A stretch of 64,000 nt of DNA, taken from positions 1,456,566 through 1,520,565 of the forward strand of contig ML992501.1 in the NCBI GenBank assembly GCA_010093995.1. Reading direction: 5' to 3'. Below, in pieces: positions 43,923 to 64,000 of this stretch. How positions within the stretch are numbered: the first letter of the stretch is position 1; the number at the start of each line of letters is the position of its first letter. Origin of the DNA: Elsinoe ampelina (taxonomy: Eukaryota). Both the position numbers and the translations under genes were made by a program. The notes under the pieces are model-generated. The model worked only from the letters and a program-made list of their open reading frames with translations, had not been told where the DNA came from and made no database searches.

Positions 43923-46900
43923 ATGATTCAGACTGTTACATCCACCGCGACCCAGCAAAGTGCTGGTCGCCTGTACATCAAGAGCGAAGAGCCGCTCTAC
44001 ACCATCGATGAGCTGATCAAGCGAAGAGCATCAGAATTACGAGACTCAACACTTCTCGCATATCCAAAGACCGGACTCTGTGACTTTGAAGAGCACTCAG
44101 CAAATGCCGTGGACCGGTACATCGATGCTGCGGTGGCGACCTTACAGACGAGAGGTTTGAAACCAGCTGTGAGTATCACTCCCGATCGCAAGTTGCAAAG
44201 CTAATAGACTCAATAGGACTCGCGGCTACAGCAAGCTCCAGTTATTGCCATTCTCGCACATTCTAGCTTCCACTTCATCATCACACTCCTGGCCCTCAAC
44301 CGGTTGGGATACGCTGCTCTGCTACTATCACCACGGCTGGCAAGTCCTGCCATGGGATCATTACTGGACCAGTCACAATGTCGAATTGTTCTTTCCACGG
44401 CCAGCTTCGAGGCAGTCCTGGGTGAGGTACGGCGCGATCGAGATCTGACAGTGCTGGATATGTTGAAGCACGAAGACTATCGGCAGTCAAGTGCTGCTCC
44501 TTTCTCGCGGCCATACGACCCTCTCCGGGAGAACCCAAAGTGGGCTGTCATCATCCATTCTTCTGGCTCGACCGGCATGCCAAAACCTATCTACCTCACC
44601 CATCGAAGCTGTCTCGGAGCTTTCGCTCTGAATCTTGATCGGAGATCGTTGATGACGCAGCCATTGTTTCACAGTTTCGGCTTCTACGAGACATTCCGAG
44701 CCGTATACTCGGGAAAGCCAATGTACTACTACAATTACGACCTACCCGTCACTAAACAGAATCTCATTGTTACCATCGCCCACGTCAAACCCGACCTTTT
44801 TTTCTGTGTACCATACATTCTCAAGCTCCTTGGAGAATCAGAAGAGGGCATACAGGCGCTCGCTTCTATAGATCTGATTCTTTGGGGTGGTAGTGCTTGC
44901 CCTGACGCACTTGGCGATGCCTTGGTCCAGCGGGGCGTTAACATTGCGGGCAATTATGGAGCGTGAGTGAAGCGAGTTCCATAGCAGAATCGCGGCTGAC
45001 AAGGCTTAGTACCGAGACCGGAAGAATGATGACCTCTGTTCGTCCACGAGATGACCTGCTATGGAGCTACATGCGCATTCTGCCGCAAACTCAGCCACAT
45101 GTGCTTATGGATGAGATCGCACCAGGGATCTATGAAGCTGTTGCATTGGAAAGCCTCAAATCGAGAAGTACAATCAATTCCGACAACCCACCGAATTCCT
45201 TCAGGACTAAGGATCTCTTCACGAAGCATCCATCAATACCGAACCGATGGAAGTTCGTCTCCCGTCTGGACGACCGTTTGACTTTGTACAATGGGGAGAA
45301 AATCTTGCCTATCCCTATCGAAGGTAACATCCGCAAGTCACCTCTTGTGTCAGAGGCGGTAGTGTACGGAGATGGCAAAACTATACCTGGTCTCATTATT
45401 GTGCGATCTACGGAGTCTGCACAAGTATCAGACAAGGAATACCTCGACATGATCTGGCCAACGATTGAAGAAGCGAATGCGAACGCTGAGAGCTTCTCGA
45501 GGATTCCACGCGAGCTGGTCATTGTCCTTCCTGCAGACACGACATATGCACGAACCGATAAGGGCACCTTCATTCGTGCTCAAGTCTATGCTCAATTCAA
45601 GGATATGATTGAGGCGGCATACACCGATTTCGAAACAGGGACCGATGATTCAGTGACTAAGGTCTCGTTATCAATTTCAGAGCTGGAGACGTTCCTTCAA
45701 CAGAAATTTGCAGAGCACCTTGGAGTGGAGCTTCCGTCACTGCAATCCGACTTCTTCGCTTTCGGAATTGACAGCTTGCAGTGCATCAAGATGTGGAGCT
45801 TGATGAAGAAGGAGATCGACCTTGGTGGCAACCAGGCACAGCTCGGACAGAACGTACTCTATGAGACTGGCAATATCGAAGGTTTAGCCCGTCATCTCTC
45901 CGCTCTCAAGACTGGAGAGAAAGAAGACTCCAAGGATGCATACCGAGTCATGGAAGATCTTGTCGAGAAGTATTCTTACTTCGAGAAGCACAATCAGCAA
46001 CAAGACTCCTCATCTGAAGGAGAGGTGATTGTTCTCACTGGTGCGACTGGAGGTCTCGGAGCGCATCTTCTCGCACAGCTCGTTCGCAAACCAAATGTCC
46101 GGTCAGTCTGGGCACTCACTCGTGCATCATCAGATGGAATCGCCCTCAGCAGGACTCTGCAGAGTCTCAAGACCCGCGACATCAAGCTCACTTCGGAAGA
46201 GCTCAGTAAAGTCGTAGCCGTCCCGGCCGACCTGAGCAAACCAGACTTCGGCCTCGGCGCAGAGCGATACGAGGATCTCCGCTCGAAAGTCACCTCCATC
46301 ATCCACAGCGCATGGGCGGTGAATTTCAATCTCGCTGTTCAGAGCTTCGAAGACCAACACATCAAAGCTGTTCGAACCTTCATCAACTTCTGCCAATCCA
46401 CCACTCATGGCCGCCCAGCCCGTTTCTTCTTCTGTTCTTCCGTCTCCTCCACAGGTGGCACCCCACGACCAGACACAGTCCCCGAGACGCCCGTCCGCTC
46501 CATTTCACATGTCCAAGGCACCGGCTACGCACGCTCGAAGTACGTGGCCGAGACCATTGTCCGCAACGCTGCTCGGTTGGTCGGAGCTGACGCTCGGGTC
46601 CTCCGTATTGGGCAACTAGTCGGCGACAGCACAGTCGGCGAGTGGAACATAACCGAGGGCATCCCTCTGATGATTCAAACAGCTCAAACTCTTGGCGCAC
46701 TTCCCATGCTAGATGAAACCATGACTTGGCTCCCGGTCGACACAGCAGCGAGCATCATCATCGATCTTGTGGAAAGTGGCTCCTCCGTCGACCCAGAGAA
46801 GGTCTACCACGTTCTCAACCCTGCTTCTTTCCACTGGACAAACGACATGCTTCCCGCTTTCCGTGCCGCCGGGCTAGATTTCGAGGCGCTGCCAACCCCT

Positions 46901-47152
46901 GAATGGATGGATCGACTCCGCAACTCGGAGAGAGATCCGGAGAAGAACCCACCGATCAAGCTGTTGGATTGGTTCGAGAGCAAGTATGGTGCTGGAGCTG
47001 CGGCGAAGCCCAAGGGCCCGTTGGTGTACGAGACTAGGGAGACAGGAATGGAGAGTGAAACAATCGGGAGGGTACCGGACGTCACTGATGCGGAATATGT
47101 TGGAAAGGTTGTTCAGCGGCTGAAGGCTGCTTGGGATAGGAAGCGGGCATGA
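43923..47152 (+). CDS. NRPS-like carboxylic-acid reductase (A-T-R); introns ~44169..44216 and ~44963..45009
   Basis: IIHSSGSTGMPKP (A3), NYGA|TETG, RTKDLF, RLDD; carrier DFFAFGIDSL; reductase LTGATGGLG, IIHSAW.VNF, GYARSK, RIGQ. Confidence 0.93.
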
Positions 47153-47823
47153 ACTTAACGAACGGACATTCGGTGCATGGCGCACGCCAAGACTTGGTTG
47201 ATGGAGTCAGGCTCTCATTTGGAACCTCAAGGTAAAGGATAGATCCCAGTTCATATCATTCATCCTTATTCAGGTGGGCTCACCTTCTCATCATGTGCTA
47301 CCAAGTGGCCAAGTCCATCATGGCAGGCTCGTGGCATCGACCATGACTGCTGTCATGATCCTGGATCTCTGAGACAACGTGGCTCCATGCCTACAATTCC
47401 ATTCTGGATCTACACGTCCAAGGCCCTTCCAGTACTGTATGGCCAGGCATTCTGATCCACTTCATCTCTGTTTCATTCGTCCTCTACGTCAACGAATTGG
47501 TCCCGGGTCACCGATATTCAAGCTTGCTACTACCAGATGCAGGGGCTCATTCGGACGGAGCATGCCCTATAGGCGGTCGACCAGAGAAGATCAATCCCGT
47601 TGTCATGACATGGGACTAACTCTACCTCTTACGCCTATTCAACGCTCAATGATCGACAGGATCCACGCATCATGCTGCACACAAGCAAAAAAATTCATCC
47701 TTACTTATTCTGAAACAACACCCCCTGCATCGATCATTGTCAGCGATGATCACCTCCTCAGCACGGCAAGCACACGTGACTATCTCAACCTGACTAAGCA
47801 CTAAATTCTTCCAGCAAAGTGGC

Positions 47824-48055
47824 AAAAAAGCTCTTACTCATCTGCTCGACTCGGCCGTTGTACCAGGGCTTCTCCTCTCTTTACTGCATCGCACATTAAT
47901 TTGTGGTGCTATGAAGTGAGGAGAACTTGATTTGAACCCGGGGTCTTTGCTCTGTGTCAGAGCTACGCCGAACAGATGATGGCCCAAACTCGGTCGACTG
48001 CTTTTAAGGGCAGAAGACTTGGTTTTGACTACTTAACCACTTGAGCTACGCTCGC
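47824..48055 (-). ncRNA. tRNA-like, Pol III-type structured RNA locus (~230 nt), identity unknown; alternatively a tRNA pseudogene or SINE
   Basis: On the minus strand: TATATAAT (48091-48098), tRNA-like 5' end GCGAGCG-TAGCTCAAGTGG (A box 48037-48048), GGTTCAAATC (B box 47929-47938), T6 terminator (47824-47829), and several perfect helices. Confidence 0.6.
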
Positions 48056-49077
48056 GGGGTTGTTCGATGGGGGACGGAGGACGAAGTAGCATTATATAGT
48101 TATGCTTCTTGGGGGAGGACTTTGTGGCATGTGAGAACGGGTGAGTTGGGAGGGTGTGCATGTGGTAAGCCTTTTCTATTACACTTGAATACTTATTGGC
48201 AAGATCACTTTTGAGGCCTCACATGAGTGGCTATCCGACGATCTTCATCTCACACGATCTTTGCGACATACTTCACACCGCACATCATATATCGAGCATA
48301 TTGAATATGTGTCTCTGATCTTGGACTTCATCACAGATATCGCTGTAAGTAACACGGCTGAACTCCAATCACTGTCACCTGGTCATCGCTGACATCTCTG
48401 TCAGTGATCGGATTACCATTATCATTACAGAACGGTTCGCCACTATAATCTCGATGTGCAGAATCAAGCCCATACAGCCGAAAGCGATCACACTTTGCGT
48501 GATGGTTTCCGGTCGATCAGCATAATACTCGATCTTTGTTCCACCACCGGGCCGACTATAACACAGACCGAGCAGGGTCAGCATGTCAGGCAGTTCTTGA
48601 TTGCTAGGATAACTCTTCAAGGATCACCGGAGGTAGACGGCTCGCATTACAGTCGGAATAAAAGCAACGTCACAGCTTTGTATTACCACGTTCGAAAGAT
48701 ACTAAGGTTATCGTATACCTACCACACCGGGGAACGCAGGGGACTGAAGCCTGAGTGGCAGGATTGTCGCACCGGCCCTCCTAATACTGTACTAGGGTCA
48801 CAACTTCAGATATCACTTCTTCGCAGCACGGTAGCCCCTCAAAAGTGAGTCCTGATCGACACGACGATAATTAGAGAGCCTCACTCATTGACCAGGGGAT
48901 TGAACTTCACGCCAACGCCGAAACCAGGACATATGCTCCAAGCTATTTGATGGAAAACCTTCATCTCACCCTTCACATCTCAATTTGGCCTGATACGCGG
49001 ATTTGACAGCAGATTCAAGTGACGGAGAAGATGTGCGTATCACGAGAGAGTCAAAGATTCATCCTTGGGGCTCAACG

Positions 49078-49256: not shown

Positions 49257-51422
49257 GAGACCCCGGAGACTGCTCAGATCGCCGACGAAGTCGCGTGAGA
49301 AGATCACTTCGAGGACAGGGTTCATCAAGCCATTGACGGGGAAATGAAGGCAGTACAAGTGGGATTGGGCGAATAGGATCGCCGTACGACTGAGGTCGAA
49401 TACACACATCCGTCTCAGGAAAACCACGCTTACAGGACTGGCAAAGCTCGCCACCGCTACACCTTCCGCCCGCCGGAAATCGGAGTGGCGGCACTTGCGT
49501 GGCTGGATTTTGGGGCTGTTCCCAGGGATACTCGACAATTCTCCGATGTTGCCGATGCTCTCCGTCGAGCGGATCAACGACTTAACGTTGCCTTTGAGGG
49601 ATGGAAGAAGGTCGCCAAGAGTATGATCGGGAGGGACCCTCCGCAGCCTTACTACATGTCATGATCGCACTGCGCGTACACTTGCGCCACTTTAACAGAT
49701 TCGGTATTGAAGACCTTTCACAAGACTCATCTGCCGATTGTGTGAGTGGTATTGGGCCAAGCGACACTGTGCATCCAGGATCTGATGACGCTTTTACTAC
49801 CACCGACCGCGGAAGAGCTATGAATGAGCGCGACATATATCACTTATCTGTCTTCGGGCCACCTGTATGCCGGAAGTGCGACGGGAAAACATGGCTTGTG
49901 GTTTCGCATGAAGACATATGATCAGAGCAAAGACGCCTTCGAAGTTGAGGGTAAGATATTATCCACGGTCAGTCACAGTCACCACCTCCGTCATGCTTGT
50001 CGAGCAGGAGTGGAGATGCACGCCCGTTCCATCGGACTCTTCCCGCCCTCCAAATATATCCAAAACGAAGTCCTGTTGTTCGAAGGTCTGACCGTGACGT
50101 GGATGAGCACATTGGATCTGGACGGCGTACAACGCTCTCCACGCCGACGTACCGATCTCACATTACAGGTGGCCCGCGATGTTGTCATGCTAGTCGGCGG
50201 AGACGACACTATCAATACTTCGTGGACAGGCTTAAATCTCTGCCATCCTTTCACCCAGGGACTACCGAACAACGAGACGCAGCCATGTTTTTTCTCCGAC
50301 CACGAATGCGACCAGACGGCCAAGGGGACCAAGAGGCCCCATGTATGGAAGGTAGCTCTCACCATGCATCCCGACTGCAAGGACAGCATCTGGCTCTGTT
50401 ACATGTGCAACAGGGCTTGGAAGAAGTCCAGAACAGTCAAACCTCACGACTGCACAAAGGACAAAGGCAAATGCCCCCACGATTGCAAACCTCGGGAACG
50501 ACAAGACGAGTGCCTCTCCTCTACGTACCCCTATTTTCTTGAGTGGATGCCGGTGCGTCGCGGGTACCTTGCGCAGAAGATGATCCGCGCCAGGCAGAAC
50601 GGTACGGGCCTGATGACCTGCATTTGCGATCGAACAATGTACGTCGGCGAGACGCCGCCAGCTGACGCCACATCGGACTCGACGCCGTGTTACCGACTGT
50701 CCGACTGTCCAGAGCCGACATGGGCGTGTACGTTCTGCGAAGGGCCGTGGCGCCACACGCCCAAGAACCGACAGGGCTTGGACGACTGGAAGGCTCAAAG
50801 ACGTCACATGTACACTCTGCATTTGAATGACGACAAGAATTGTATCTGTTCAACGGACACGAATACGGTCGCTGCCAATCTCGCAAACCTCACGCACGCA
50901 AAAGTACCAAAACTGTGCAGAGGTTGCCTCTAGACACTCAAACAAGCGGCAACTGCGCTCAGTCTTGACCTTGACGACCACCACGACGTTGCCGAAGCCG
51001 TGGAGCAGACCAAAGTTCGCCGCGCCGACCCCGACAAACTCAGAGTCGAATTCGCCGAGGCGCCAAAGTGTTCATGTACAGGAGACAACCCTGCCATCGC
51101 AAGACTCTACCCTCTGTGGCCCTTCTCACCTGACCATCGAAGCTCCAGGTTGGTAGCAACCCTTCACATCTCCAATGTCTGCCTTTTCAACTCCAATCTT
51201 CCGCTGCGACGAGGTGTGATGTTGCTGGCGATACGAGCGGACCTTCTCAAACGGAACCCTGCCAAACGAGTGCGTACGAGCTTAACCGGCTGTTTCGCTT
51301 TCGTCCCAACACGACAAGGTAAGCGAACCCCTCCATGCAAAGAATCACATCACGCACCCGTCGCTGGTTCTGCTCATCTGCTGTTGACGGAAGAGTCGGT
51401 CGTTGCGGCTGGTCTGAGGTAA
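49257..51422 (+). pseudogene. Degenerate GIY-YIG-type endonuclease with Cys/His-rich (zinc-finger-like) C-terminus
   Basis: One frame runs about 2.1 kb with in-frame stops at 49296, 49374, 49662, 49743, 49821 and 50931. It contains ATYITY..LYAGSATGKHGLWFRMKTYD, LLFEG, WTGLN and repeated CxxC/CxC motifs. Confidence 0.55.
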
Positions 51423-52034
51423 ATCAGCGCTCCGACACAGCGGTCACAACCTTGGAGACAGAACGTACTGAATGCCAACACATCAGTCCTTTGAAAGACC
51501 TGCCGCATACCGGGCAATGCTTTGTCGACATCAACCACTCTTGGTGATCTGCATGACTTGGGTCGGATAGCGGGGTGACATTGCAGATGATCTGTCGCGT
51601 GTCAGGCTGCACGTGTGAGGCCAATCGGAGTGGAAGGGACGAACGGTCGACATGATGATGTGCTGTGATGTTTTGCGAGCGCTTGGAAATGTCAAATCGA
51701 GGGTGTCGGATGGATTATGGAAGCTCGAAGCCATTTCTCGATGCACAGGCTGTCGAGGTGAGAATGTCGACACCAGTCGAGGCAAGAGCTCTCTTGTAAG
51801 GACTGCCTCGCGGGAGATGACAAGGTCGGCGCCCTAGCACCAAAGCGATGAAGATTGGCCTTGTTCACGCTCCCTACTTTGGCTTACAAGTATACTAGGT
51901 ACATCTTTGTTGCTGTTGGATGTATTTGCATCAGTCATACTGCCTCATCTGAGCGCTCGCCATCGAGCACAAGTCAAGATCATCCACGATCGAGCAATTC
52001 GAAAGCGGACATCATTCACGGCTCACTTATCGAA

Positions 52035-53515
52035 GATGGAAAAATCTCCTGATACTGCCACTGGATTATCAAATCCGCAACTGTCGGTCGACGGGACTCG
52101 ATGATGACTAGAGGTCCATCTACGCCTGTGTCAGCAACGCTCCTGATTACCCACGCCTTAGGCCACGAGTCTGCCCCGGATATCTCGTCGGATCATCACC
52201 AACGTCAGCAGAAGACTTCTTCCCTGCTCGTCATCCTGGAGACTATGAACGGCTCATGATCTACTGCACACGCTGCCGTCCCTCCGGTCGTAAACGAATT
52301 GGCGCCCAATCGACTGTCATAGACGATGAGACTCTCTGCCGAATCAGTCCAGAGGTTCCCGTCTGGCATCATGGACATAATCCTCCCCTCCAATCTCCCC
52401 ATTATGCATTTTGGACCAGAGAGCCGGATATTTCCCCGATGATGGCCTGTTCAGGCGGTCAGTCCCACTTCTGGAGTCCGCCGAGCCCTTCTACAAGCCC
52501 ATGGTATCATTCTGGTATTACATGGCCAATGGAGAGTCCTACCAGATCTGTCGCCATGTCAAATCCCAATTTTCCGGCGGATCTCGGCTGCGGTGGCCTG
52601 ACACTCAGTCTGTCTTTGCATTTCCGGATACGAGCAATGTCCTTACTTTTCAGTACGCGCGTGGCTCACTTCTGAGCCAGACCGGGATCGATTTCCAACG
52701 CCAGCATTCAAGCGTGGCGGGATCGACAAGCGTTCGATGGAATAATGTCGTCGTCTTCATGAGGTAGTTTTGCTCTGATTTGTGAGGTATCGCTCCTGAG
52801 GTCACGTTCTCTCCGTCGCAGCAAGCGCCGCCGTTTGTAGGAGATGATGGGAGCGTCGTCGCTGTCGCTGATTTCAATGATCGCGTTCGCGTCCATGATT
52901 GGCTTCAATATAAGATGGCTGAAATGAGTCTGAAAGCGTTAGCGTTCTTGTCATTCGTGTTTGAGTGCATGTCACTCACGACGGTTGAGATGGGAATGAG
53001 AGGAGCCGACTGAATGCTCAGTGATTGTTTAACGGGTCAATTCAGAGGCCAGAGCTTGTACTGGGTCGTCCAAAGAGTCAAAGATGCAGATGCTGAGACA
53101 TACTGTGCTGGTGGTCGAAGATGGTCCAGATACCGTCTTCCTGGAGAATCTGTAGGACGTTCGCGACACTCCTTCACCGACAGTGCAATCGGTCACATAG
53201 GCGCTCGCAGGACTGTCTAGCTGGTTGTCTCTCATTGTAACACGTAATGAAGACAAGATCATGGACGTGCGGAGAGAGACATCGTTGAATCCCCAGAATG
53301 GTTCGTAAGTGTTTTGACCTGTTTTGAGGAGCCTTTCAATGACCGGCATGAGGATAATGGGTGTGGGATTCGACGGCACCCGATCTGTTCCGGTGGTCGC
53401 ATGGCGTGGCTCATTAGGACCGCGTATGCCATACAAGCCCACTCTCTGGCCTCGTGACAGAGTGGCCAGATTGAAGAGTGCCGAAATGGCCATTGGTGTC
53501 TACAGAATATGTTAG
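52035..53515 (+). pseudogene. Fragmented coding-like sequence of unknown identity
   Basis: Coding-like frames (e.g. YERLMIYCTRCRP..., 52411..52767, 53100-53515) broken by TAG/TGA and frame changes; no recognisable domain. Confidence 0.3.
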
Positions 53516-53767
53516 AAATGGATCGAGCGGACTCACTCACATGTTTCCCCAGGAAACTTGGTGAGCTCGTTGTAGTCTGCGGTGTTGCGGAAAGGGGCCT
53601 CTACGGACGAGGCGAGATATTCCTTTCGATTCTGTATTCCAAGAAGTGATAACTGCGAGCTCGAAGCCGATGAGTCAGCCTCTTTCCTTCTCCTAAAGAA
53701 AGCCTCGAGCGTTCCGCATCTCTTCCACATTTGTCCATTTCTCACCAGATTGAACGGACCAGCTGCG

Positions 53768-55154
53768 ATGGAGAATCCTCTCTTCAACTTTGATACTTCT
53801 AAAGTTCCACTCGACATCACTATCTCCAATAATACGCTACTACTCAGCTACGATCCGAGCAGTGATACGTATCGCCCTCTGCGTGACGCTGGGCGCCACA
53901 GCCATCAGGGCCCATCCAGGTATTCTTCGCTGGAAGAAGACCCCTCGCCAGAAGATCTGACTTTGATTTCTCACCACCAGAGGACGACTTCAGCTTCTCA
54001 CCACCGCTCGCCCCTGGCACTTTCTCTGTTAGGGAAGATGCCCTGCCCGCTCCAGTCGACCTCGCCCCGGATGCTCGTGGCACTCGTTACATTCTGATCA
54101 GATCATACGCGGAACTGAGCGACGAGGAATGTAATAGGATAGAATCCCTCGGGGTGGCAGATCTTGTCGAAGAAGACGACAATATCTACGTAGGGATATA
54201 CGAGCAGAATGATCTTGATGAGCTAAGACGACTGGATTTCCTCGCATACGTGGACGTGAACCAGAGATTTTTCAAGATTAGCGCCGGGCTCCGATACAGC
54301 GCGCGTACTAGAAGAGTCGTTGCGGACGGCACATCCTCAGACTCCACATCTCCGGCTCCTGAGGCTTCTCACATCAATGTCGCCATCGGATTTTTCCGAA
54401 GACCCGTCTGGGGGCCTGGACAGGTATATGATCAATTGATAGCGGCAGGCATAATTCCGCCCGAAACCATAAGACCGACTGGCGACATCATCCACGCAGT
54501 GGTGGCGTTGAGACATCTGTCTCGTCTTACTCGATGTGACAGCATCCAGTGCGTCCTCGACGATTCCGGCATGCGCTTCGACAATAATCAGGTTCGCGAA
54601 GTGATCAGTAGTCCAAGCAATTACTCTGCAAACTCTCACACTGGTTCGGCGTTCAATGGTGTTGGTCAGGTCATACACGTCTCCAGGGTTTCGGGCGTGT
54701 AAACGTCAACGGAAGTCTCTTCGTCATTGAGGCGGAATGTGTTGACCCATCTGCGCAGAAGGAGGGTGGGTTCGTCGACATCCCCGATCCAGTAAAGAAC
54801 ATCCAAGAGATCGGTAAAGGGTCTGAACACAGCTACACCATCGACATTACCGCAGCAGACGGGCCATTCGCGCCCACTAAGAAGCTGAAAGCAACGCTCA
54901 CCTGGCTCGATCCTGGTAACAAGAAGCTCGTCTACCGTCTGGGACTGGCTGTGATTTTGGGCGGCAAGCGCAGACATGGTAACTTTGGTCCCAAGAAGCA
55001 GAAATCTCCATATGTCTACGACGAGGACAACAACGTGCAGCAAGTCATTTGGGATCCTGCACCATCGGGGACTGCAACCATCATTGTCAAATGTCTGCGT
55101 CTGCCGAAGGGTACACGAGGCTGTGGGTATGCGTTGGCGTGGAGCTTGGAATGA
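53768..55154 (+). pseudogene. Subtilisin-like S8 (KP-43-type) protease gene lacking its catalytic domain; frameshifted
   Basis: N-terminal ITISNNTL, then DARGTRYILIR...YVGIYEQNDLDELRRLDFLAYVDV prodomain and FNGVGQVIHVS (start of the catalytic domain). This abuts, in another frame at 54684, QGFGRVNV...LKATLTWLDPG...RRHGN...DEDNNVQQVIW...YALAWS* (C-terminal beta domain). No D/H/S triad motifs are present. Confidence 0.75.
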
Positions 55155-55782
55155 GTGCTTGGTCTTTCTCCACAAGATCACTGGTTCACGATGGCGTTTT
55201 GCGGCATAATACAAGGAAGTTTGCAAAGGTCCATGATGGCAGCAAGGCGTTGGCTCAATCTGGGAAGGGGCTTGCAGTCTTGAGCGATCATACCCCATTC
55301 TGCGTGATTGCGGCAGCAGGATATACTGCTTCAATGGAACATTGACGATAGTCTCGATTCTTCACTCAAGAGGAGTCAGCGTTTTCTGGTAGTGCAACGA
55401 TTCTGAGGAAGAGCAAGTAGAAACGCCCAGCGAATCGTGACTGCCACCAGCGAATACAACCTCTTATGGTCAAAGATCCGTTTGCATTAAAATTCTAGTG
55501 CACCCACCCCTGATAGTCCTTCGAAGTGGGACTTTCGTGCATGCCATGCCAGGCAATTGACGATGTTTCCTGTGTTGGTAGCAGTGACCGATGGATGGCG
55601 ACAAGCAAGTACATCACGCCTTGTTGGGTCACCGAGGAAAAGTTTACTTGAATCTTGCGTTGCTTCTTCCGTGATGAACTTTGTGGTGTGAAGTCTGCAC
55701 GATGACTCCGCACTCTCCTATTCTACATCTTCCAGAGCGCCAACTCCACTAGCGACACGACAGAATCCTACCAGCATGCAAC

Positions 55783-56559
55783 ATGGAGAAAGTGTACGTA
55801 CCCGACCGCCCGGATTCGGACGACGCAACCCATCCAGTCCTCCCACCAACAACCATTGCGCTTCACCGTCGGGTCCTCCATCTCGTCCAGGATGGTGACA
55901 AGATAGCTTACACCCCATCACTCGACCCAAGCCGCTACCGTTACGCCAAAGTCCTCACGCCGGCCAACAGCGAGGCGGTGTGGCGCTGTCTCGTCCCCGT
56001 TCCGCCATCCGACGACGCAAGCTCGAGCCGGTACATCCACATCAAGACGTGGGCAGCCCTGGAAGACTTTGAGGAGGACGACCTGCTGGCGCTCGGAGTC
56101 GAGGTGCTTCAAAGGGTGGATCATCAACAGACTTACGTCTGCATGTACGAAGGGATAGATCTCGGCAGGATCAGGGAGTTGCCGTTCGTCTTATACGCCG
56201 ACGTGTATCAGATGTTCTTCAAGCTCAGGGGAAGTTTCAGGCACGTGGTAGCGCATCACGATGGTGTGAGAGCATCTCCGTCGAAAGTGGATGTGATCGT
56301 GGATGTGCACAGGAAGCCGACGTCGGCGAGGTGTGAACTGATAGTGAGGCTGTTGCGAGAGGGGAAGTTGGTGCTGAAAGAGGTGCATTCAGAACACGGA
56401 TATTTCTGCGGTGAGATGGCGGTGGCGGATCTGGTGTACTTGGCAGAATTCGACTGTGTAAGGCAGGTGGAGGGGTGGAATCGTGAGGACATCCGCGAGG
56501 TTATTGCACGAGAGACGGTAAGACGGGAGGCGCTGGCCGAGCTGAAGGACAGGCACTAG
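55783..56559 (+). CDS. Intact 258-aa protein consisting of only the S8 (KP-43-type) prodomain
   Basis: DASSSRYIHIKT..LLALGVEVLQRV..TYVCMYEGIDLGRIRELPFVLYADVYQMFFKL..VDVIVDVH..LAEFDCVRQVE aligns by eye to the prodomain of the upstream copy. The ORF is uninterrupted from ATG to TAG. Confidence 0.7.
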   Translation: MEKVYVPDRPDSDDATHPVLPPTTIALHRRVLHLVQDGDKIAYTPSLDPSRYRYAKVLTPANSEAVWRCLVPVPPSDDASSSRYIHIKTWAALEDFEEDDLLALGVEVLQRVDHQQTYVCMYEGIDLGRIRELPFVLYADVYQMFFKLRGSFRHVVAHHDGVRASPSKVDVIVDVHRKPTSARCELIVRLLREGKLVLKEVHSEHGYFCGEMAVADLVYLAEFDCVRQVEGWNREDIREVIARETVRREALAELKDRH

Positions 56560-57140
56560 ACTTCGTAATAGAACTTGAAAGGTCGGAAATGCTGTCGCGA
56601 GTTGAAGGTATCGGGTAGTGACCCTTGCCTGCCTGTAGCTGTATTCAGCCGGAGCGTGGAGAGCCGCTCCTGAAACGGGCGACACGGCGAGAAGTAACCT
56701 GCCAGAATCCCCCGACCAATGATCGGGCAATTGTAGCGAGCGTGTCGGCGGCGTGGTTCGTGGCGTATGGCAAACAAGATCATGTACGACCCAAAGGGCG
56801 GTCAACGTGGTACAAAACGACCAATCGAGACCGGATCCTCAACAAGGTGTTGTCGGCTTTTGACAATCACGGTGAGTTTGGGTGAGATGGCGACTTTAGT
56901 GAATGTACTTGAGTTCCAGTCTGGAATTCTGACTCAGCCATGTCTAGACCAGTACAGGCGCACCTAGAGCGAGCCGAAGGACGGCTCGTATGCCATTCTA
57001 TGCAAAGCGCGATGAGAGGCAGACGGCAAATATATGTACACGCCCAAAAGTAGCGGCACGTCAAAGCGGCGGTGAATGTGCTCGCGACCAGTCTCAGAGG
57101 AATGCTAGTAATCGACCGGTGCCACGCGGCGCCATGCATC

Positions 57141-57202
57141 GAGATGGCTAGACATGCATGGAGATGGCTAGACATGCATGGAGATGACTAGACATGCATG
57201 GA
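57141..57202 (+). repeat. 20-bp tandem repeat x3 with internal palindrome CATGCATG
   Basis: gagatggctagacatgcatg x2 followed by gagatgactagacatgcatg. Confidence 0.92.
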
Positions 57203-58532
57203 TATTGTCCGGGATGCAGTGACGAGTCCAACATCCGGGGAGAGTGGGGCGGTTGTTATCGGAAGGCGATACCGAACCAGCCCTGACACTGCAAAAGATG
57301 CTGGGGCCTGGGGGTGGGACTTCCTGGGGATCAAACAAAATGGACGAGAGTCAGGTCGGTCTGGGGAGGAAAAAGGCGGAGGAATGTATCGAGCCGAGGA
57401 AACCGAGGGGAGCGTGGGTGGGTGAGAGAAGGCCTGAGGAAGCGGGAGAAGAAGGTGATTAAGTTGGATCTGAGACACTGGCAGCTTGGGACTGACTCTT
57501 GGAGTGGGAAAGTGGGAGAGTGGGATGTCATGTACTGTGCAACCGTGGCGGGCCGAGTGTAATGCATGAGAAATGCAGGAGGTGAGCCTTGATAGTGATA
57601 GCGAGCTTTGCGAGCAATAAAGGTCGTGAGGCTGCCATGTCCGTCCAAGGGATTTTTCACTCGCTTTCCAACTCATCACCGTCGTACAGATCGTCAGCCA
57701 ACACATCGATACAGCAGACCTTGTACATCTCTAGCCAACTAGAGCATTGACGCCTCCAGCCCTCTGACCTGATTTTAGCAACTTGTTCCAAACATCTCCG
57801 CAACCCCCAAACACGTGGAATTTCGGCTCATTTCCCGCGGACTGGGGCAGATCAAGGAACTTGGAAGTGGAAAAGAACCCCATCACCAGGTCTACAGCAC
57901 ATTGATCACCGTCTGCACGCACACGAGGGAACGTGTCTTCATTTCCGGACCTCAGAAGAGAGGTAACTTACACACAGTCCAAGGACAAGGGGTTGTTGGA
58001 AAAATAAAAACCCTGGATTCCCGCTCAATCTCGCCCCTGACATCAGACGGACAAACTTGATAAAGTGACTTTCTCAGCCTGTCCTTTTTATCACATCAAA
58101 TCTCACACTCACCCTCGCCTTCAGCCCGTCTCATCTTCTCCTCTTAAACGCCCAGGTCGCACAGAACTTCCAGCCCAGCCGATCACTCCAAACCAGGCTC
58201 AAACGGACACGCGGCGCTACTTTGACCTCTCAGTCCAAAGCCCTTTCGCTGCAAAGACCCGAAAAATACAAGTTCCTGCGCTCGGGTTATTCCCTGACCT
58301 CTACCAAACTCTGCTCGTCTTTCTCGAAAAGGCTCCCAAATTTCCATCACCTCTTCAACCACGGTCACACCGCGCCACCCAGAATTAGAAATCTTTGACG
58401 ATTTTTTCTATCAGTTCAAATATTTCGACATCCAACGTCAGATTTTCTTCCATCATCTTACCACCACCCATCTCACTCCAGCATCACTCCTCGTCACCAC
58501 CGACACACTATCCCACCACCACAATCATCACA

Positions 58533-58802
58533 ATGTCCTCCTCATCAATCCAATCACCAATCCCAGTCCGCCCACAACTCATCCCCTCCCTCTCCACCGA
58601 CTCTTTCAACGAAGACCTCGCCTCCGCCTTTGCACAATCCAACTCGGCCCCCCGCGTCCCCGACCTCAACATCCGCACCCCAAAGCAGACCGACTGGGTG
58701 CCCTGCGCCCCTCCCCCTTCGCCCATCGACTCTGCCCTGCTAAGCGCAGGCAGCAGCTCGTCATCGCTACACATGGCGACGGGCAAAGTCAACGGCCGCT
58801 AG
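58533..58802 (+). CDS. Small Ser/Pro-rich hypothetical protein (~89 aa)
   Basis: ATG in a CACAATG context after a pyrimidine-rich leader, C-ending codons, WVPCAPPPSP motif. Confidence 0.5.
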   Translation: MSSSSIQSPIPVRPQLIPSLSTDSFNEDLASAFAQSNSAPRVPDLNIRTPKQTDWVPCAPPPSPIDSALLSAGSSSSSLHMATGKVNGR

Positions 58803-59467
58803 GTCAATGAGGTCGCGCCTCACTTTCTTCTTGCGACTTTCCTTCTCAACATTATCAGTTCGGCGCAGGGCAAGCATCACTGGCGTTATTCCCCACTGGC
58901 AACCGACGACGGTTCAACTCGATTTTTTTTTCTGGGCAAGTCTACTTCGGCATCATACGGGTCATGGGATGCTTAATCGGCAATCTCTCTTCGCGCGTCA
59001 GTCTCAGTCTCCGCGGCTTTTTTCCTATCTGGCTTTTCTTGGAGTTTGTAGTGGAGGGTCCTATGGGACCTTGTCAGGCTGGGAAAGGGCAGGCTTCTTT
59101 CACGTGCTGGGCGATGGCAGGCAACAGCTCTGCAGGGCTGGAGGTCCTTTGTGGGACCGGGGTCCAAGGTAGCCAGTGAATGTACATTTTACCATGCTCT
59201 TGCGCTTGTATCACTTTCACGTGTGAATCAGATCCCTCTTCATGACCATCGCCATGGCTAGAGCTCGTTCCACGAGGTATTCCCGACCAGCCGTCATGCA
59301 GGTCGGTCGAGGATAAGCTTATATCTCCGTCACTCACTACGCAGCACGCCATGATATCGCGCACGAACAAATGGCATTCATACATGTCTTGATCACTCCA
59401 AATCAGAACCACACTTCCCGCGCTGGAACACAAAAGATCGACCCTCTTCCCCATCTCCCCTCTCCCC

Positions 59468-61076
59468 CTACGCCTCCTCAAAATTGAGTTCCACCCTCTC
59501 GTTAGGCTGCATCACAATCTCCGCCCTCTCCCCGACCACCCGACCCTCCATCCCACTCACCCCCTTATACCTCTGCAAAATCCTCACCACCGTGTACGCC
59601 ATCTCCGTCAACGCAAACTGTTGCCCCACGCATATCCTCGGCCCGCCGTTGAAAGGGATATAAGTCCAGGACTTTGGGGTCCAGTTCTGCCATCGCTCCG
59701 GCACGAACAGGGAGGGGTCGGGGAAGGTGGGCGAGGTGGCGGGGTAGATGTCCCTTCGTCGCTGGAGGACGAGGGTGCTGTACCCGACGGGAGTGCCCTC
59801 GGGGATGCCGAGGGGGGAGAGGCCGTCTGGTCCGCCGCCGTGGGGGAGGGTCGTGTCCTTTAGGGCGACGCGGACGTTGAAGGGGACAGGGGGGTAGATG
59901 CGGAGGATTTCGTTGAGAGTGTGCTGGAGGTAGCGCATGGATTTGAGGTCTTCGTAGGTTGGGGGCCGGTCGGGGCCGAGACGGGAGAGGATTTCGGCGC
60001 GTAACTTTGCGACTACGTCCGGGTGGGAGGGGAGGGTGAGGAATAGCCAGGAGAGGGTCACGGCTGTGGTGTCGCGGGCGGCGAGGAGGACGGAGAGGAG
60101 TTGGTCGCGGAGCACGGTGCGGTCGCGGGTGAAGGCCGCGAGGGCGTGGAGGAAGGTGAAGCCTTCGTCGAGTTTGGTCTTTTCTTCGAGTTCTTTGGGG
60201 GAGAAGCGGAGGGTTTGCTCGATGAAGGGGGCGATGAAGTCTTCGATTACTTTGAGGGAGGCGTAGAAAGACTTCCGTGGGACGAAGCGGTTGAGGGGAC
60301 CGGCCCGGGCGATGAGGGATTGGACACGCTGGACTTCGGCAAAGGCGTCGGCGAACGCAGACTTCGGAGTCACGAGAGAGTCGACTGAGGCGCCGAGAAG
60401 GAAGTGCGTAGCGCTGTCGAGAGTGTAGCGGAAGATGAGTTCGGTGAAGTTGATGGGCACGCCTGGGGCTCTGCTCTTCATTTGAGGAAGCATTACTTGC
60501 AGATGCTCTTCGAAGACTCGCAGGTCTGATACTCTGTCCTTGATGAATTGAGGTCGAATGAGGGCGCGAGAGTCGTGCCATGCTTGGTTGTCCGTGGTAA
60601 AGATGCCTAAGTGTGTCAGCCCCGTGCCTTTCCCACGCAGATATATATCTCTTACTGTCTCCCAAGAAATCATGCCAATCCTTGTTGAACCTTGGTCCCT
60701 TTCCATAGTCGCTGAACTGTGTCGCTAGTATAGCCTTGATATTCTCTTCATCTGCAGTCAAGATACTCCTCAATCCCAATACCCTAAGCTCGGTCGTGTA
60801 CGGCCTGTTCGGGTTCGCAGTCTGGAAGACGGAATTGAGCCAGAACTCATAATTGCGGTGTGTCAGATTCGCCTTGACCGCCTTGTACGTGAAACCGAGG
60901 CCTAGCGGGGTCCAGTCTGGTATCTTGGGTGCATGCAGCCCCAGTTTCCTGATCTTGTGCTCGGATAAGAGAAGGGCGAAGTAATATCGACCTACCACCA
61001 GAGCTACAGTTAGCCCAAGGAATGTGAGGATTGGCGATTGTCCGAGTGACAGCTGGGAGAGGATGCCGGAGGACAT
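59468..61076 (-). CDS. Cytochrome P450, CYP52/CYP584-like (alkane/fatty-acid hydroxylase); intron 60607..60655
   Basis: N-terminal TM segment; ENIKAILATQF, FLGD|SIFTTD, AARDTT (I-helix), EILR, PERW and FNGGPRICVG heme motif. Confidence 0.95.
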
Positions 61077-61656
61077 GGTGCTGGTCGTGCTGGAGCAGCA
61101 AAGTGCTCTGGAGGAGGAAGGAGGGCAGCCATCGTGGATGTAGTATATCAGCCAGCGTTACACATGTCAGCTCTTGAGCTCGTCCAATCGTATTCGATCC
61201 GACTGTCCAGGCGAGCTGAAACGGGCCACTCAGGCTTCCCCAGTTTTCCATTGTTCCTTGCTCCCCGCATTTGGCATGTTCGGATTTTTGGCGGAAAATC
61301 ACGACAAACATCTCCTTGTTTCTCCCGTGGCTAGGCAGGTATGAGGAGGGCAAGAGGAGACAAAGAAGAGACTAGATGAGGCCCATACCATGCCAGAATA
61401 ATTAATACGAGCAGAAATGCTCAAGTTGCTGCAAAAAGGTCTTGTAGTTGTCCGAGTTGTCCACCATCACGGAATTTTAATTCCTTGGTTCGCCAACGGC
61501 TGTCAAAAGCTAATCTACCTCGGTACCCAGCCGACATGTCATGACATATTTATTATGCTCGCTATGCGCGCATAACCTGTTTCCATAATACAGCAATTGG
61601 TCTCCTGCAGCCAGCAAGTCATCTTACGTCTAAAGTCCTTGGTCCCCGATCATATC

Positions 61657-64000
61657 TCATGCTGCAATTGCGTTTCCGCCATCACTATCGCCGATTGCAC
61701 TATCCTCCGCCGAGCTCGGGTCCTGGTATCCAGTAGCCGCTGCCCTCCACGGTGCACTGGGCCCAACGATGCCGCTCTTGCGCTTATCTGACTTCGAGTA
61801 CGTCTTGATCCTGTTCCTGCTCGATGACGGGATCGTTGTCCTGCTCAGCGCCTTGAACTCTTGCGGGAGGGAACTCTGCCAGGTGTCCTGCGTGGCTTGA
61901 AGTGGCTGATCGGCCAAATCACCCAGCTCAGGAGATGCAAGCCTCAGCGATCCAAGCTCCTCAGATGCACCAGACACGTCATCAACCCCTTCCTCATCTT
62001 CGTCGTCGGCAAGATCGTGTTCTTGGGTAGTGTCTTGTCCTGGCGCGTCCACAGCATCCTGCACAGCATCCCCATCCGCGTCCGACACGACTGCTTCTTC
62101 ATCGGCTGTGTGGTTGGCCAGGTGGTTTGCTTCGTCGTGCCAAATCGGATGTAGCATGTCCTCAGCGACGGTATCGTTGCCTCCACTTAGTTCGACAACC
62201 TCAGATCCTTCCGCAATGCCTTCATCGTCACGGGGAAGTTCCAGGTTCCCAGACTCCTTCGTGTCGATAACCTCTTGCGACCATCGGTCAACGCGGTCAG
62301 CAGCATATTTCTGCTGTGCCAAAGGATTCAATCGTCTTTCCCTCTCCTCATCCGTGCTCGCCAATTCGATGCCTTGCTCCCTCCTGATCCTCTTCCTCTC
62401 CTCTCGTCTGACCTCATGTCGACGCTCGGCCTTAATCCTCGTCGTTTCCCGAGCGAGATCCCACAGTATGTCATCCGGCACCCTGATGGCTGGAGCTCGT
62501 TTTTTGTTCCTCCATTTCAACAGATGGAATGCCAGCTCCTCCTCACCCATGCGAGCAAACTCTGTAGAAGGATCAGGATGCTCCACATCACCGCCATGCT
62601 CCAACACCCTCTCGGTCCTCTTGCGCACAATGGCTTCGAGGTGCCATTGATGCCACTGCGAGTCTAGATTGTAGCGCCTTCGGATCTCGCTCGCATCGAC
62701 CTCCGAAGCAGTCATCCTGGCTCGCCTTTCAGCATGGCGCGCCTCATGTGCTGCTCTCCTCGCCGCACGTCTCTGCGCCGACGCCGCTTGGATTGCGACT
62801 TCGGCGTCTGTGGGCTGCCTGCTCCCTTTCTCGACTTCGCACTCCTGGTCAATGACCTGATCGCGATCGCTGAGCTCCTCATTAGGATCAACGCTGCTTC
62901 CCAGTATTTGACCTCTCGCTTCGCGGATCTGTGCTGCTTGTCGCTGAACAACGTCCTCCTGATAACGCTCATCGGCAAGCAATTCCTGCGATCTAGAGCG
63001 CGGGGGCGTGGCTTGGTCGGGAACTCTTTCCAAAGATTGATCGTAAACCACGTTACCATGACTGGTGCGAGCAAGCACCCAAGTCTCGTACCGGTCGGAA
63101 AGCCAGTCAATGCTTGATATGATGTTGCGACGTAGTCCACCTCGAAATCCAGCCTCCTTGACGATGTTCCAGTACTGCGTGATGCGATCTTCAGCCGTGT
63201 AATGCTCCTCGCGGCATTCACGGCGTACAGTGACCAGAAAACTGTTCAAGTCGGTGAAATTGCCAGCATGATACGCCGCCATGAGATCGTGCAGCATGAG
63301 ATATTGATCACCGGGTAACCACACTTTCTCATCGGGAGGCGTCCGCGCCCGAAGTCGCGAAGGGCCGGAGGTGATGGGAGATGGAGGTCGTTCACTGCTA
63401 TCGTATACCCGTTGCGCAAACCGACGGACCGGTCGCGGCGAGTCTTCACTACTGGGATCATCTGGCTGAACAGCAGGTTGCGGGATCGGCGGCGATGATG
63501 CGAAAGATGGCGAGCTGGGCTCCGCGGCGACCTGTGCCGTAGCATCGTTCGGACGTGGTTCGTCCCCGATCCTCGACGTAGCAGATGGGGATCCCCCTGG
63601 CCGAGCTTCCTCCTCGTCTTCCTCACTGGAAGACTCCGCTTGCTGCACCTCGTTCCCGGCAGCTACTACTCGTTGAAGAGCAGGTGCTGTTCTTCTTGCA
63701 GAGCTGCCATGTGCTAGAGGAATTGCTTTGCGGATAGCCTTACGCGCTTGGGACCCTGTTGGCGGCGACTGAGGAATGTCGTAGATCTGCGATTCCTCAG
63801 CGATTGTTCTTTGAGGTGTGAAGATGTGTCCCGATGCTAGGAAGAGACCTTGCTTACCTCCATGTCATCGTTGCGCTGCGAGTATTGCGGCTGGGTGGAG
63901 TCTTCGATCTCGTCGTCCTCAGAAGTGACTTTTGCGGCGCTCAAGTATTTCTTGCTTGAATGTGGTGCCGAAGCACGTCTTGCCTTTTTGCTTTTTGCAG
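61657..64000 (-). CDS. Large low-complexity, charged hypothetical protein; 5' end lies outside the window; probable intron 63787..63857
   Basis: The 663-aa ORF extends upstream to a GTAAGC..CAG intron and an open exon running to the window edge. E/R-rich coiled-coil-like segments. Confidence 0.6.

Follow-up and report, generated by a model that had tools for sequence, protein, structure and literature searches.

Does the short element at 47824–48099 of a 64,000-nucleotide (nt) window of the Elsinoe ampelina genome (contig ML992501.1) encode a conserved structured RNA that RNA polymerase III (Pol III) makes, or is it the remnant of a transfer RNA (tRNA) gene carried along in a repeat? The window is the whole 64,000-nt stretch that we analysed; all positions are given in its coordinates, and the motifs and helices of the element were placed by direct reading of the minus strand. 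An earlier note on this DNA had proposed a functional tRNA-derived non-coding RNA (ncRNA) of about 230 nt, or else a short interspersed nuclear element (SINE) or a small-RNA precursor. The reading that we prefer, and hold with about even confidence, is that of a tRNA-derived, low-copy repeat family, the members of which have kept Pol III-type signals, may still attract Pol III and drift without visible structural constraint. The copy in the window is best read as a decaying tRNA-derived module rather than as a conserved structured ncRNA gene, and so far there is no evidence for a conserved working RNA from the element. Of the earlier proposal, the tRNA derivation was supported, as was the multi-copy family that its SINE alternative would require; the use of base pairing as a sign of function was not.

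On the minus strand, the A box, the B box and a T run follow each other in order downstream of a TATA motif (Table 1), the arrangement of a type-2 Pol III gene with its optional upstream TATA. Every motif of the layout described in the earlier note, as well as all of its helices, was recovered at its place. The proposed RNA unit would run from 48055 to 47824 (232 nt). Its tRNA-related head with A and B boxes is also that of a tRNA-derived SINE, and the 98-nt spacing of the boxes is longer than in tRNAs. Taken singly, the boxes tell little: the A-box pattern was found 21 times in the window against 13.6 expected, and the B-box pattern, with 4 found against 4.5 expected, is at chance level. The ordered layout is much rarer. 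Among 300 dinucleotide shuffles of the window, A and B boxes in order appeared in 18, together with a T5 run in 2, and with the TATA added in none. The layout of boxes, T run and TATA exceeds chance for one window, which is the scope in which these figures hold, many windows having been screened beforehand. Because the boxes and their layout exceed chance, the stretch looks tRNA-derived, as had been claimed. Short intergenic motifs brought together by chance would fit both the chance frequency of the single motifs and the prior screening of many windows; however, the full layout arose in 0/300 shuffles and the element recurs as diverged copies elsewhere in the genome, and we regard such an origin as extremely improbable.

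No cloverleaf can be drawn for the element. ARAGORN detected no tRNA in the whole 64-kb window; its intron and lowered-threshold modes gave nothing at the element, the matches at 70%–80% threshold lying elsewhere or on the opposite strand. Rfam 15 returned no match in the whole window at the gathering score, and none at E up to 10 for 47810–48070 alone, the tRNA model included. At the same E, the wider region 47500–48400 gave nothing inside the element and three box-C/D-like chance matches (E 1.9–6.9) outside it. A 7-base-pair (bp) acceptor stem is absent, since TACAACG, following CCTGG (47867–47863), does not pair with GCGAGCG. These searches agree with the earlier note, which had described neither a cloverleaf nor any likeness to 5S, U6, signal recognition particle, RNase P/MRP or small nucleolar RNA (snoRNA) motifs; a known Rfam family or an intron-containing tRNA, either of which it had named as contrary evidence, was looked for and not found at the element. 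The split T-stem-like pairing and the duplicated 9-mer GCGTAGCTC are read as debris of a tRNA sequence, not as a working tRNA.

Several other identities were considered and rejected. A tRNA with unusual introns is ruled out by the missing acceptor partner, the blank intron modes of ARAGORN and the unmatched Rfam tRNA model. An H/ACA snoRNA was suggested by an ACA after CCTGG, but the pocket is lopsided (11 nt vs 1–2 nt) and Rfam gave no match; a C/D snoRNA fails on direct reading, its C or D boxes not being in the right places, and likewise has no Rfam match. For the hammerhead-like motif CAGAUGAG, no Rfam ribozyme family was matched. Protein coding was dismissed as well, as no open reading frame (ORF) of at least 60 amino acids (aa) spans the element and those inside it measure only 20–42 aa. 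Two side observations concern the tRNA-like parts. The second occurrence of GCGTAGCTC (47968–47960) leads into a D-arm-like hairpin, and the duplication, for which about 0.1 occurrences would be expected by chance on our own estimate, hints at tandem tRNA-derived pieces or at an insertion flanked by a duplication. Furthermore, UGCUUGC at 47772–47766 on the minus strand is a wobble complement of GCGAGCG, with G·U at positions 3 and 7, and ends exactly at the edge of the piece that is spliced out of transcripts; given the absence of a T arm before it and about 0.3 chance matches expected on our own estimate, this pairing potential is probably due to chance.

The element belongs to a family of diverged copies. 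Contigs from four public runs, of 11 runs with matches, were placed on 47000–49000, and only covered parts were used as evidence; the contigs are strandless, and the copy number is a lower bound drawn from contigs of public runs with the same organism label. The window's copy together with copies B, C and D makes at least four distinct loci. Copy B (record 17 of run X8, 1086 nt) aligns to 47783–48058 with 27 mismatches and 5 gap letters, and is about 88% identical. Copy D is seen in record 19 of X8, which aligns to 47935–48069, and in record 14 of run X5, the two having five substitutions and two insertions or deletions (indels) in common. Copy C (record 4 of run X3, records 18 and 20 of X8) matches only the core 47918–47968, its unlike flanks being identical between the records. 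Run X8 contains diverged relatives only, without an exact copy of the window. Overall, the copies have drifted 10%–30% apart, indels included. The contigs thus bear out the multi-copy family that a SINE-like alternative calls for, with several dispersed copies at no fewer than four loci. Inside the 64-kb window, neither blastn nor nhmmer detected a second copy. A metagenome scan with the core plus B-box pattern returned 0 loci, and one with the hairpin-base pattern returned 3, about the number expected by chance, with 59%–70% GC and no further similarity.

The earlier note had taken the RNA of about 230 nt as the unit; the alignments of copies B and D (47783–48058 and 47935–48069) show a conserved unit larger than this. 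Beyond the T6 run, similarity goes on for 41 nt (to 47783), and ahead of GCGAGCG for 14 nt (to 48069). The 30-nt loose ends of the contigs, aligned to the window by hand, carry it further. In copy B, the upstream loose end matches the window at 14/16 positions and, after a 7-nt insertion, at 4/4, and the downstream one matches through a common 10-mer around CACGTG (47773–47778). In copy D, the loose end at 48069 contains TATATAT within 1 nt of the TATA distance in the window. Copies of a retroposed SINE should be alike only from the Pol III start onward, but copies B and D align upstream of it too. Because alike upstream flanks are unexpected for retroposed SINE copies, the family either spread as DNA or has a promoter region under selection. 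The target-site duplications that had been suggested as a check were not found on reading the element and its flanks, nor were TG..CA ends or an A-rich or simple-repeat tail.

These observations enable us to propose a putative history of the element. It would be one copy of a small dispersed family of at least four loci, the core of which would descend from tRNA-gene sequence and would still carry the A box, the B box, the T6 run and the upstream TATA. The repeated unit would measure about 290–330 bp and take in sequence ahead of the putative start as well as beyond the T run; since it extends past both, it most likely spread at the DNA level, through duplication or as a mobile unit of unclassified type, rather than by retroposition of a Pol III transcript. 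TFIIIC and Pol III may still be drawn to the boxes at some copies. The window's copy appears to sit in a low-depth, spliced plus-strand transcript between a gene for a nonribosomal peptide synthetase (NRPS)-like reductase and a downstream plus-strand gene.

A repeated unit wider than the Pol III unit would equally be expected if the element lay in the interior of a larger repeat (for example a solo long terminal repeat, a foldback or miniature inverted-repeat transposable element (MITE)-like DNA element or the untranslated region of a long interspersed nuclear element) that had captured or come to mimic a tRNA and whose Pol III look is incidental. The copies do lie in contigs of 1086–1623 nt that are transcribed throughout, and the 3' hairpin forms a palindrome, perfectly centred, that varies in length from copy to copy. 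The region is also flanked by an inverted repeat of 15 nt (93% complementary; arms at 47738–47752 and 48380–48394, 627 nt apart); however, the second of these arms falls within an intron of the downstream gene, and the repeat may be due to chance, with about 0.03 expected on our own estimate. Moreover, contigs that extend for hundreds of further, unlike bases show similarity of at least 85% over about 290 nt only, the ends, duplications and tails named above are missing on reading, and no reverse-transcriptase or transposase ORF is located nearby. We consider a larger repeat of this kind unlikely. As an observation in its own right, the 15-nt inverted repeat could mark the inverted termini of an ancient DNA element, or be due to chance.

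Structural constraint was evaluated by folding both strands and by permuting substitutions between copies. The 233-nt stretch folds on the minus strand at −75.7 kcal/mol (z −3.85 against shuffles) and on the plus strand at −80.7 kcal/mol (z −4.07). Because both strands fold equally well, the helices give no indication of strand; they reflect inverted repeats at the DNA level and are silent on which strand matters, if either. In a permutation test, the listed substitutions of copies B and D were re-placed at random 5000 times on the predicted pairs. On the minus-strand fold, those of copy B broke 5 pairs, kept 3 and included 1 double change, against a null mean of 5.27 broken pairs (P 0.57); on the plus-strand fold, the P value for broken pairs was 0.81. 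For copy D, the P values for broken pairs were 0.53 and 0.49. Over both copies, double changes were not in excess (P 0.16–0.25). The top of the long hairpin is variable as well, with 4 nt deleted in copy B besides mismatches, and with 13 nt in copy C replacing 46 nt of the window. Within the limits of two paralogs and incomplete substitution lists, the copies give no sign of selection on the fold. The new base pairing, from which the earlier note had argued for function, does not carry that argument: the plus strand folds as well, substitutions break pairs as random ones do, and the hairpin top varies. The permutation, of low power on paralogs B and D, revealed no excess of pair-keeping changes.

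The same hairpin brings in a further possibility, a Pol III-driven small-RNA precursor in which the tRNA-like head would serve as both promoter and processing handle, with dicing of the 56-nt hairpin to microRNA-like RNAs (milRNAs), comparable to milR-4 of Neurospora. A hairpin with 28-nt arms does lie directly 3' of the B box, and, according to the accessible part of the source, Pol III makes most milRNAs of Neurospora and RNase Z cuts milR-4 out of a precursor that contains a tRNA (PMC3547838). However, the head of the element does not fold as a tRNA, making recognition by RNase P or RNase Z doubtful, and the hairpin top is not conserved in copies B and C. A precursor of this kind is very unlikely.

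Transcripts over the window's copy were traced in runs X3, X4 and X5, which we took as RNA on the inference that their contigs skip 48345–48404 and/or 48845–48895 with GT..AG ends. For the window's copy, contigs of X3 and X4 reveal an intron with GC..AG ends (Table 1), beginning with GCAAGC on the plus strand; on the minus strand, its ends would read CT..GC. The joint 47764>47814, which may lie 1 nt further on, is found in one contig each of X3 and X4, from two studies, and the spliced contigs are identical to the window over 47713/47736–47764 and 47814–48051/48068. An unspliced form is also present in X4 (record 9, 47736–47836). Since GC..AG ends occur only on the plus strand, the transcript has plus polarity, antisense to the proposed minus-strand RNA. 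The spliced form of plus-strand polarity is the sole RNA form found for this copy, and its contigs run through the T6 run. The spliced plus-strand 143-aa ORF (47439–47765 joined to 47815–47919) shows 2 synonymous vs 7 non-synonymous changes in copy B, by hand count, and a 4-nt deletion; the family similarity is therefore not protein-coding. The contigs of the copies measure 637–1623 nt, which places the copies within longer transcribed stretches. Mean contig word depth, a poor measure of expression, was 4 over the proposed RNA vs 3.3 over the upstream exon contig in X4, and 23.9 for the X8 contig of the 3' end of the NRPS-like gene. As a side observation, the spliced transcript (exons about 47687–47765 and 47815–48068 or beyond) could be non-coding, or could serve as a long 5' leader for the gene downstream.

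A number of observations weigh against a decaying repeat. The B box is present in 4/4 copies, with changes only at degenerate positions of the consensus: that of copy B lies at 47933, A to G on the minus strand and toward the GGTTCGA consensus, and that of copy D at 47931, an N position. The T6 run is unchanged in copy B, where no difference is listed over 47821–47842, and CGGGTTC..TCAAGTTCTC and GAGAAGCCCTGGTACA are unchanged in every copy that covers them. The TATA in register in copy D and the 14/16 upstream match of copy B would also fit selection on an external promoter. In these sequences, the promoter pieces look retained across copies. Two double compensatory changes were seen, 47973–47844 (G-C to A-U) in copy B and 47914–47881 (U-A to C-G) in copy D, and three wobble changes fit the minus strand only, two of them in copy B (47944 and 47974/47843) and one, at 47941, in copies C and D; another three fit the plus strand only, which leaves the strands level at three each. 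The permutation test itself drew on two paralogs at low power, with 19 of the 27 mismatches of copy B and 18 of the 22 of copy D listed and indels ignored. In X8, the mean word depths, to be read with the same caution, are 1426.5 for the copy B contig, 264 and 48.8 for copy C and 29.9 for copy D. These depths would keep alive the reading as an active gene, without establishing it.

Such a reading would make the element a member of a lineage-specific family of Pol III ncRNA genes, using TATA with TATA-binding protein and TFIIIB as well as the A and B boxes with TFIIIC, and yielding a stable RNA of about 230–245 nt that would have a function in the cell, starts about 10 nt before GCGAGCG and ends at T6, the spliced plus-strand RNA being unrelated antisense or read-through. 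The complete promoter and terminator layout absent from all shuffles, the retained TATA, B box and T6, the depths of copies B and C in X8 and the fold z of −3.85 all speak for it. So does the similarity, which in the manual alignment fades gradually into the flanks without a sharp stop, and one window-identical contig ends at 48068, 30 nt below the TATA, although the end of an RNA cannot be established from contigs. For Neurospora, the accessible part of one report also describes Pol III units that carry poly-T, TATA-like elements and putative A and B boxes (PMC3547838). On the other side, the paralog substitutions show no structural constraint, the plus strand folds as well, the similarity goes on for at least 41 nt past the terminator, the window copy's contigs run through T6 and are spliced with plus polarity, and the X4 depth over the proposed RNA is near that of the upstream exon contig. 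In addition, a 98-nt spacing from A to B box is long for a type-2 promoter, and an essential ncRNA would not usually have paralogs that differ by 10%–30% and by indels. A Pol III gene family is in our view possible but doubtful. Its bolder form is rather unlikely: a multigene family of the Elsinoaceae that yields Pol III RNAs in abundance, each about 230–245 nt long with a tRNA-derived head and a new body, from an upstream TATA and widely spaced A and B boxes; the RNAs might serve as a small-RNA source or ribonucleoprotein scaffold, and the depth of copy B would reflect them.

The genomic surroundings of the window's copy are compiled in Table 1. The upstream NRPS-like protein finds its best longer relatives in Fusarium longipes (59%) and Talaromyces islandicus (49%), and its gene looks like a patchily distributed secondary-metabolism gene, judged by sequence. 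Further upstream lie MCM2, COG6 and a WD40 gene; the MCM2 ORF shares 93% identity with its counterpart in Sphaceloma murrayae (Elsinoaceae) and 91% with that in Myriangium duriaei, both of the Myriangiales. MCM2 thereby places the window in or close to the Elsinoaceae, a question on which the NRPS-like protein is uninformative. Downstream, the ORFs 48456–48848 and 49824–50933 of the neighbouring gene match no Pfam family. None of the eight long ORFs over 49824–63297 matched a Pfam family (E up to 1e-5); the conserved housekeeping genes are on the upstream side.

Table 1. Positions of the element's motifs and helices, of its transcripts and of neighbouring genes in the 64,000-nt window
Feature	Position	Strand	Remarks
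TATATAA	48098–48092	−	43 nt before the G of GCGAGCG
GCGAGCG, tRNA-style 5' end	48055–48049	−	no complementary 3' strand beside the T-like arm
A box TAGCTCAAGTGG	48048–48037	−	fits pattern TRGCNNANNNGG
B box GGTTCAAATC	47938–47929	−	110 nt from A box, start to start; gap 98 nt
T6 run	47829–47824	−	possible Pol III terminator, 100 nt beyond B box
Helix GTCTT/AAGAC	48018–48014 / 47947–47943	−	encloses CTGC/GCAG hairpin; in minus-strand reading
Small hairpin CTGC/GCAG	48013–48010 / 48001–47998	−	8-nt loop; part of minimum-energy fold
Hairpin GCTCTG-ACA-CAGAGC	47963–47958 / 47954–47949	−	within core common to 4 family copies
9-mer GCGTAGCTC, two occurrences	48051–48043 and 47968–47960	−	first includes part of A box
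Helix TTCTCCTC/GAGGAGAA	47925–47918 / 47877–47870	−	base of long 3' hairpin
Helix GCAC/GTGC	47909–47906 / 47894–47891	−	by direct reading
Helix CCGGG/CCTGG	47941–47937 / 47867–47863	−	can pair across long hairpin; T-stem-like, as if split by insertion
Long hairpin	47870–47925	−	two 28-nt arms, 75% complementary, 0 nt between (inverted-repeat search)
Family similarity at ≥85%	47783–48069	unstranded	wider than proposed RNA on both sides
Intron, GC..AG ends	47766–47814	+	49 nt; CTGAC branch site 47789–47793, pyrimidine tract before CAG
RNA-like contig cover	47687–48068	+	identical to window; records 3, 8, 9 and 10, 0 differing letters each
NRPS-like carboxylate reductase	44352–47152	+	ORFs 44352–44966 and 44963/45026–47152; AMP-binding, AMP-binding_C_3, PP-binding, NAD_binding_4
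Downstream gene	48324–49000 and beyond	+	GT..AG introns 48345–48404 and 48845–48895, from contig joints
Eight long ORFs	49824–50933, 51000–51422, 53029–53493, 54666–55298, 55783–56559, 57188–57706, 59565–61076, 61657–63297		

In the accessible part of its report, the near-complete genome of Elsinoe fawcettii is annotated with 0 SINEs and 43 tRNA genes (PMC12941528). Given this absence of SINEs, a repeat family that derives from tRNA and retains intact Pol III boxes would amount to a class of repeats lacking from the annotation in a group of crop-scab fungi. As a side observation, 43 tRNA genes are very few for a filamentous fungus, which raises the question of whether the lineage really has so few or standard finders overlook some; the 64-kb window has none. 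Units of this type can act as binding sites for Pol III or TFIIIC beside genes of RNA polymerase II, here the NRPS-like reductase gene and the downstream gene, or feed small-RNA pathways. If the element did belong to a Pol III gene family, it would represent a new fungal Pol III RNA family. No description of the family was found in the literature on fungal SINEs and Pol III ncRNAs, although supplementary repeat libraries could hold one, and four short words of the element occurred in the text of 0 papers. As the evidence stands, this is a modest annotation finding.

Among known systems, the leader-type Pol III genes of budding yeast, RPR1 and SNR52, have a tRNA-like leader with A and B boxes 5' of a non-tRNA body that ends at a T run. 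The element likewise combines an internal tRNA-type promoter with a 3' non-tRNA body and a T-run end; its body, however, matches neither the RNase P RNA nor a snoRNA family in Rfam, and no fitting C/D or H/ACA geometry is seen on reading. Loss of pairing in the acceptor, D and T stems, with the boxes left in place, is a trait that it has in common with tRNA pseudogenes and tRNA-derived relics. It differs from them in giving no Rfam tRNA match at E up to 10, in being about three times as long as a tRNA, and in belonging to a family of units with a common non-tRNA body and flanks.

The primary milRNA transcripts milR-1 to milR-4 of Neurospora crassa are another instance of a fungal Pol III unit that is neither tRNA nor 5S, and the element resembles them in its TATA-like motif, its putative A and B boxes, its poly-T end and its hairpin, milR-4 being moreover tied to tRNA sequence; these traits are taken from the accessible part of that report (PMC3547838). 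However, milR-4 is flanked there by real, foldable tRNA-Ala genes that are cut by RNase Z, whereas the element contains nothing that folds as a tRNA (PMC3547838). The hairpin of the element is not conserved among copies.

AfuSINE2 of Aspergillus fumigatus offers a further comparison. As given in the accessible part of its description, it comprises low-copy tRNA-related SINE-like sequences of 140–493 bp with an oligo-T end, degenerate boxes and no cloverleaf, 5/8 families being transcribed (PMC5063351). The two are not related in sequence, as far as can be judged from the available text of that paper, in which 0/5 short words of the element occur (PMC5063351). Furthermore, the boxes of the element are near-perfect and not degenerate, they lie 98 nt apart, and no target-site duplication was found on reading. 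Its copies are alike in the upstream flank, TATA included, which would not be expected of a retroposed SINE. In architecture, the element is nevertheless reminiscent of AfuSINE2, in that the A box and the B box lie in a tRNA-related head, a body unrelated to tRNA follows and the sequence stops at oligo-T (PMC5063351). It also resembles AfuSINE2 in its size within 140–493 bp, its lack of a cloverleaf, its low copy number (1 to about 5 in AfuSINE2) and the transcription of some copies, as far as the accessible part of that description goes (PMC5063351).

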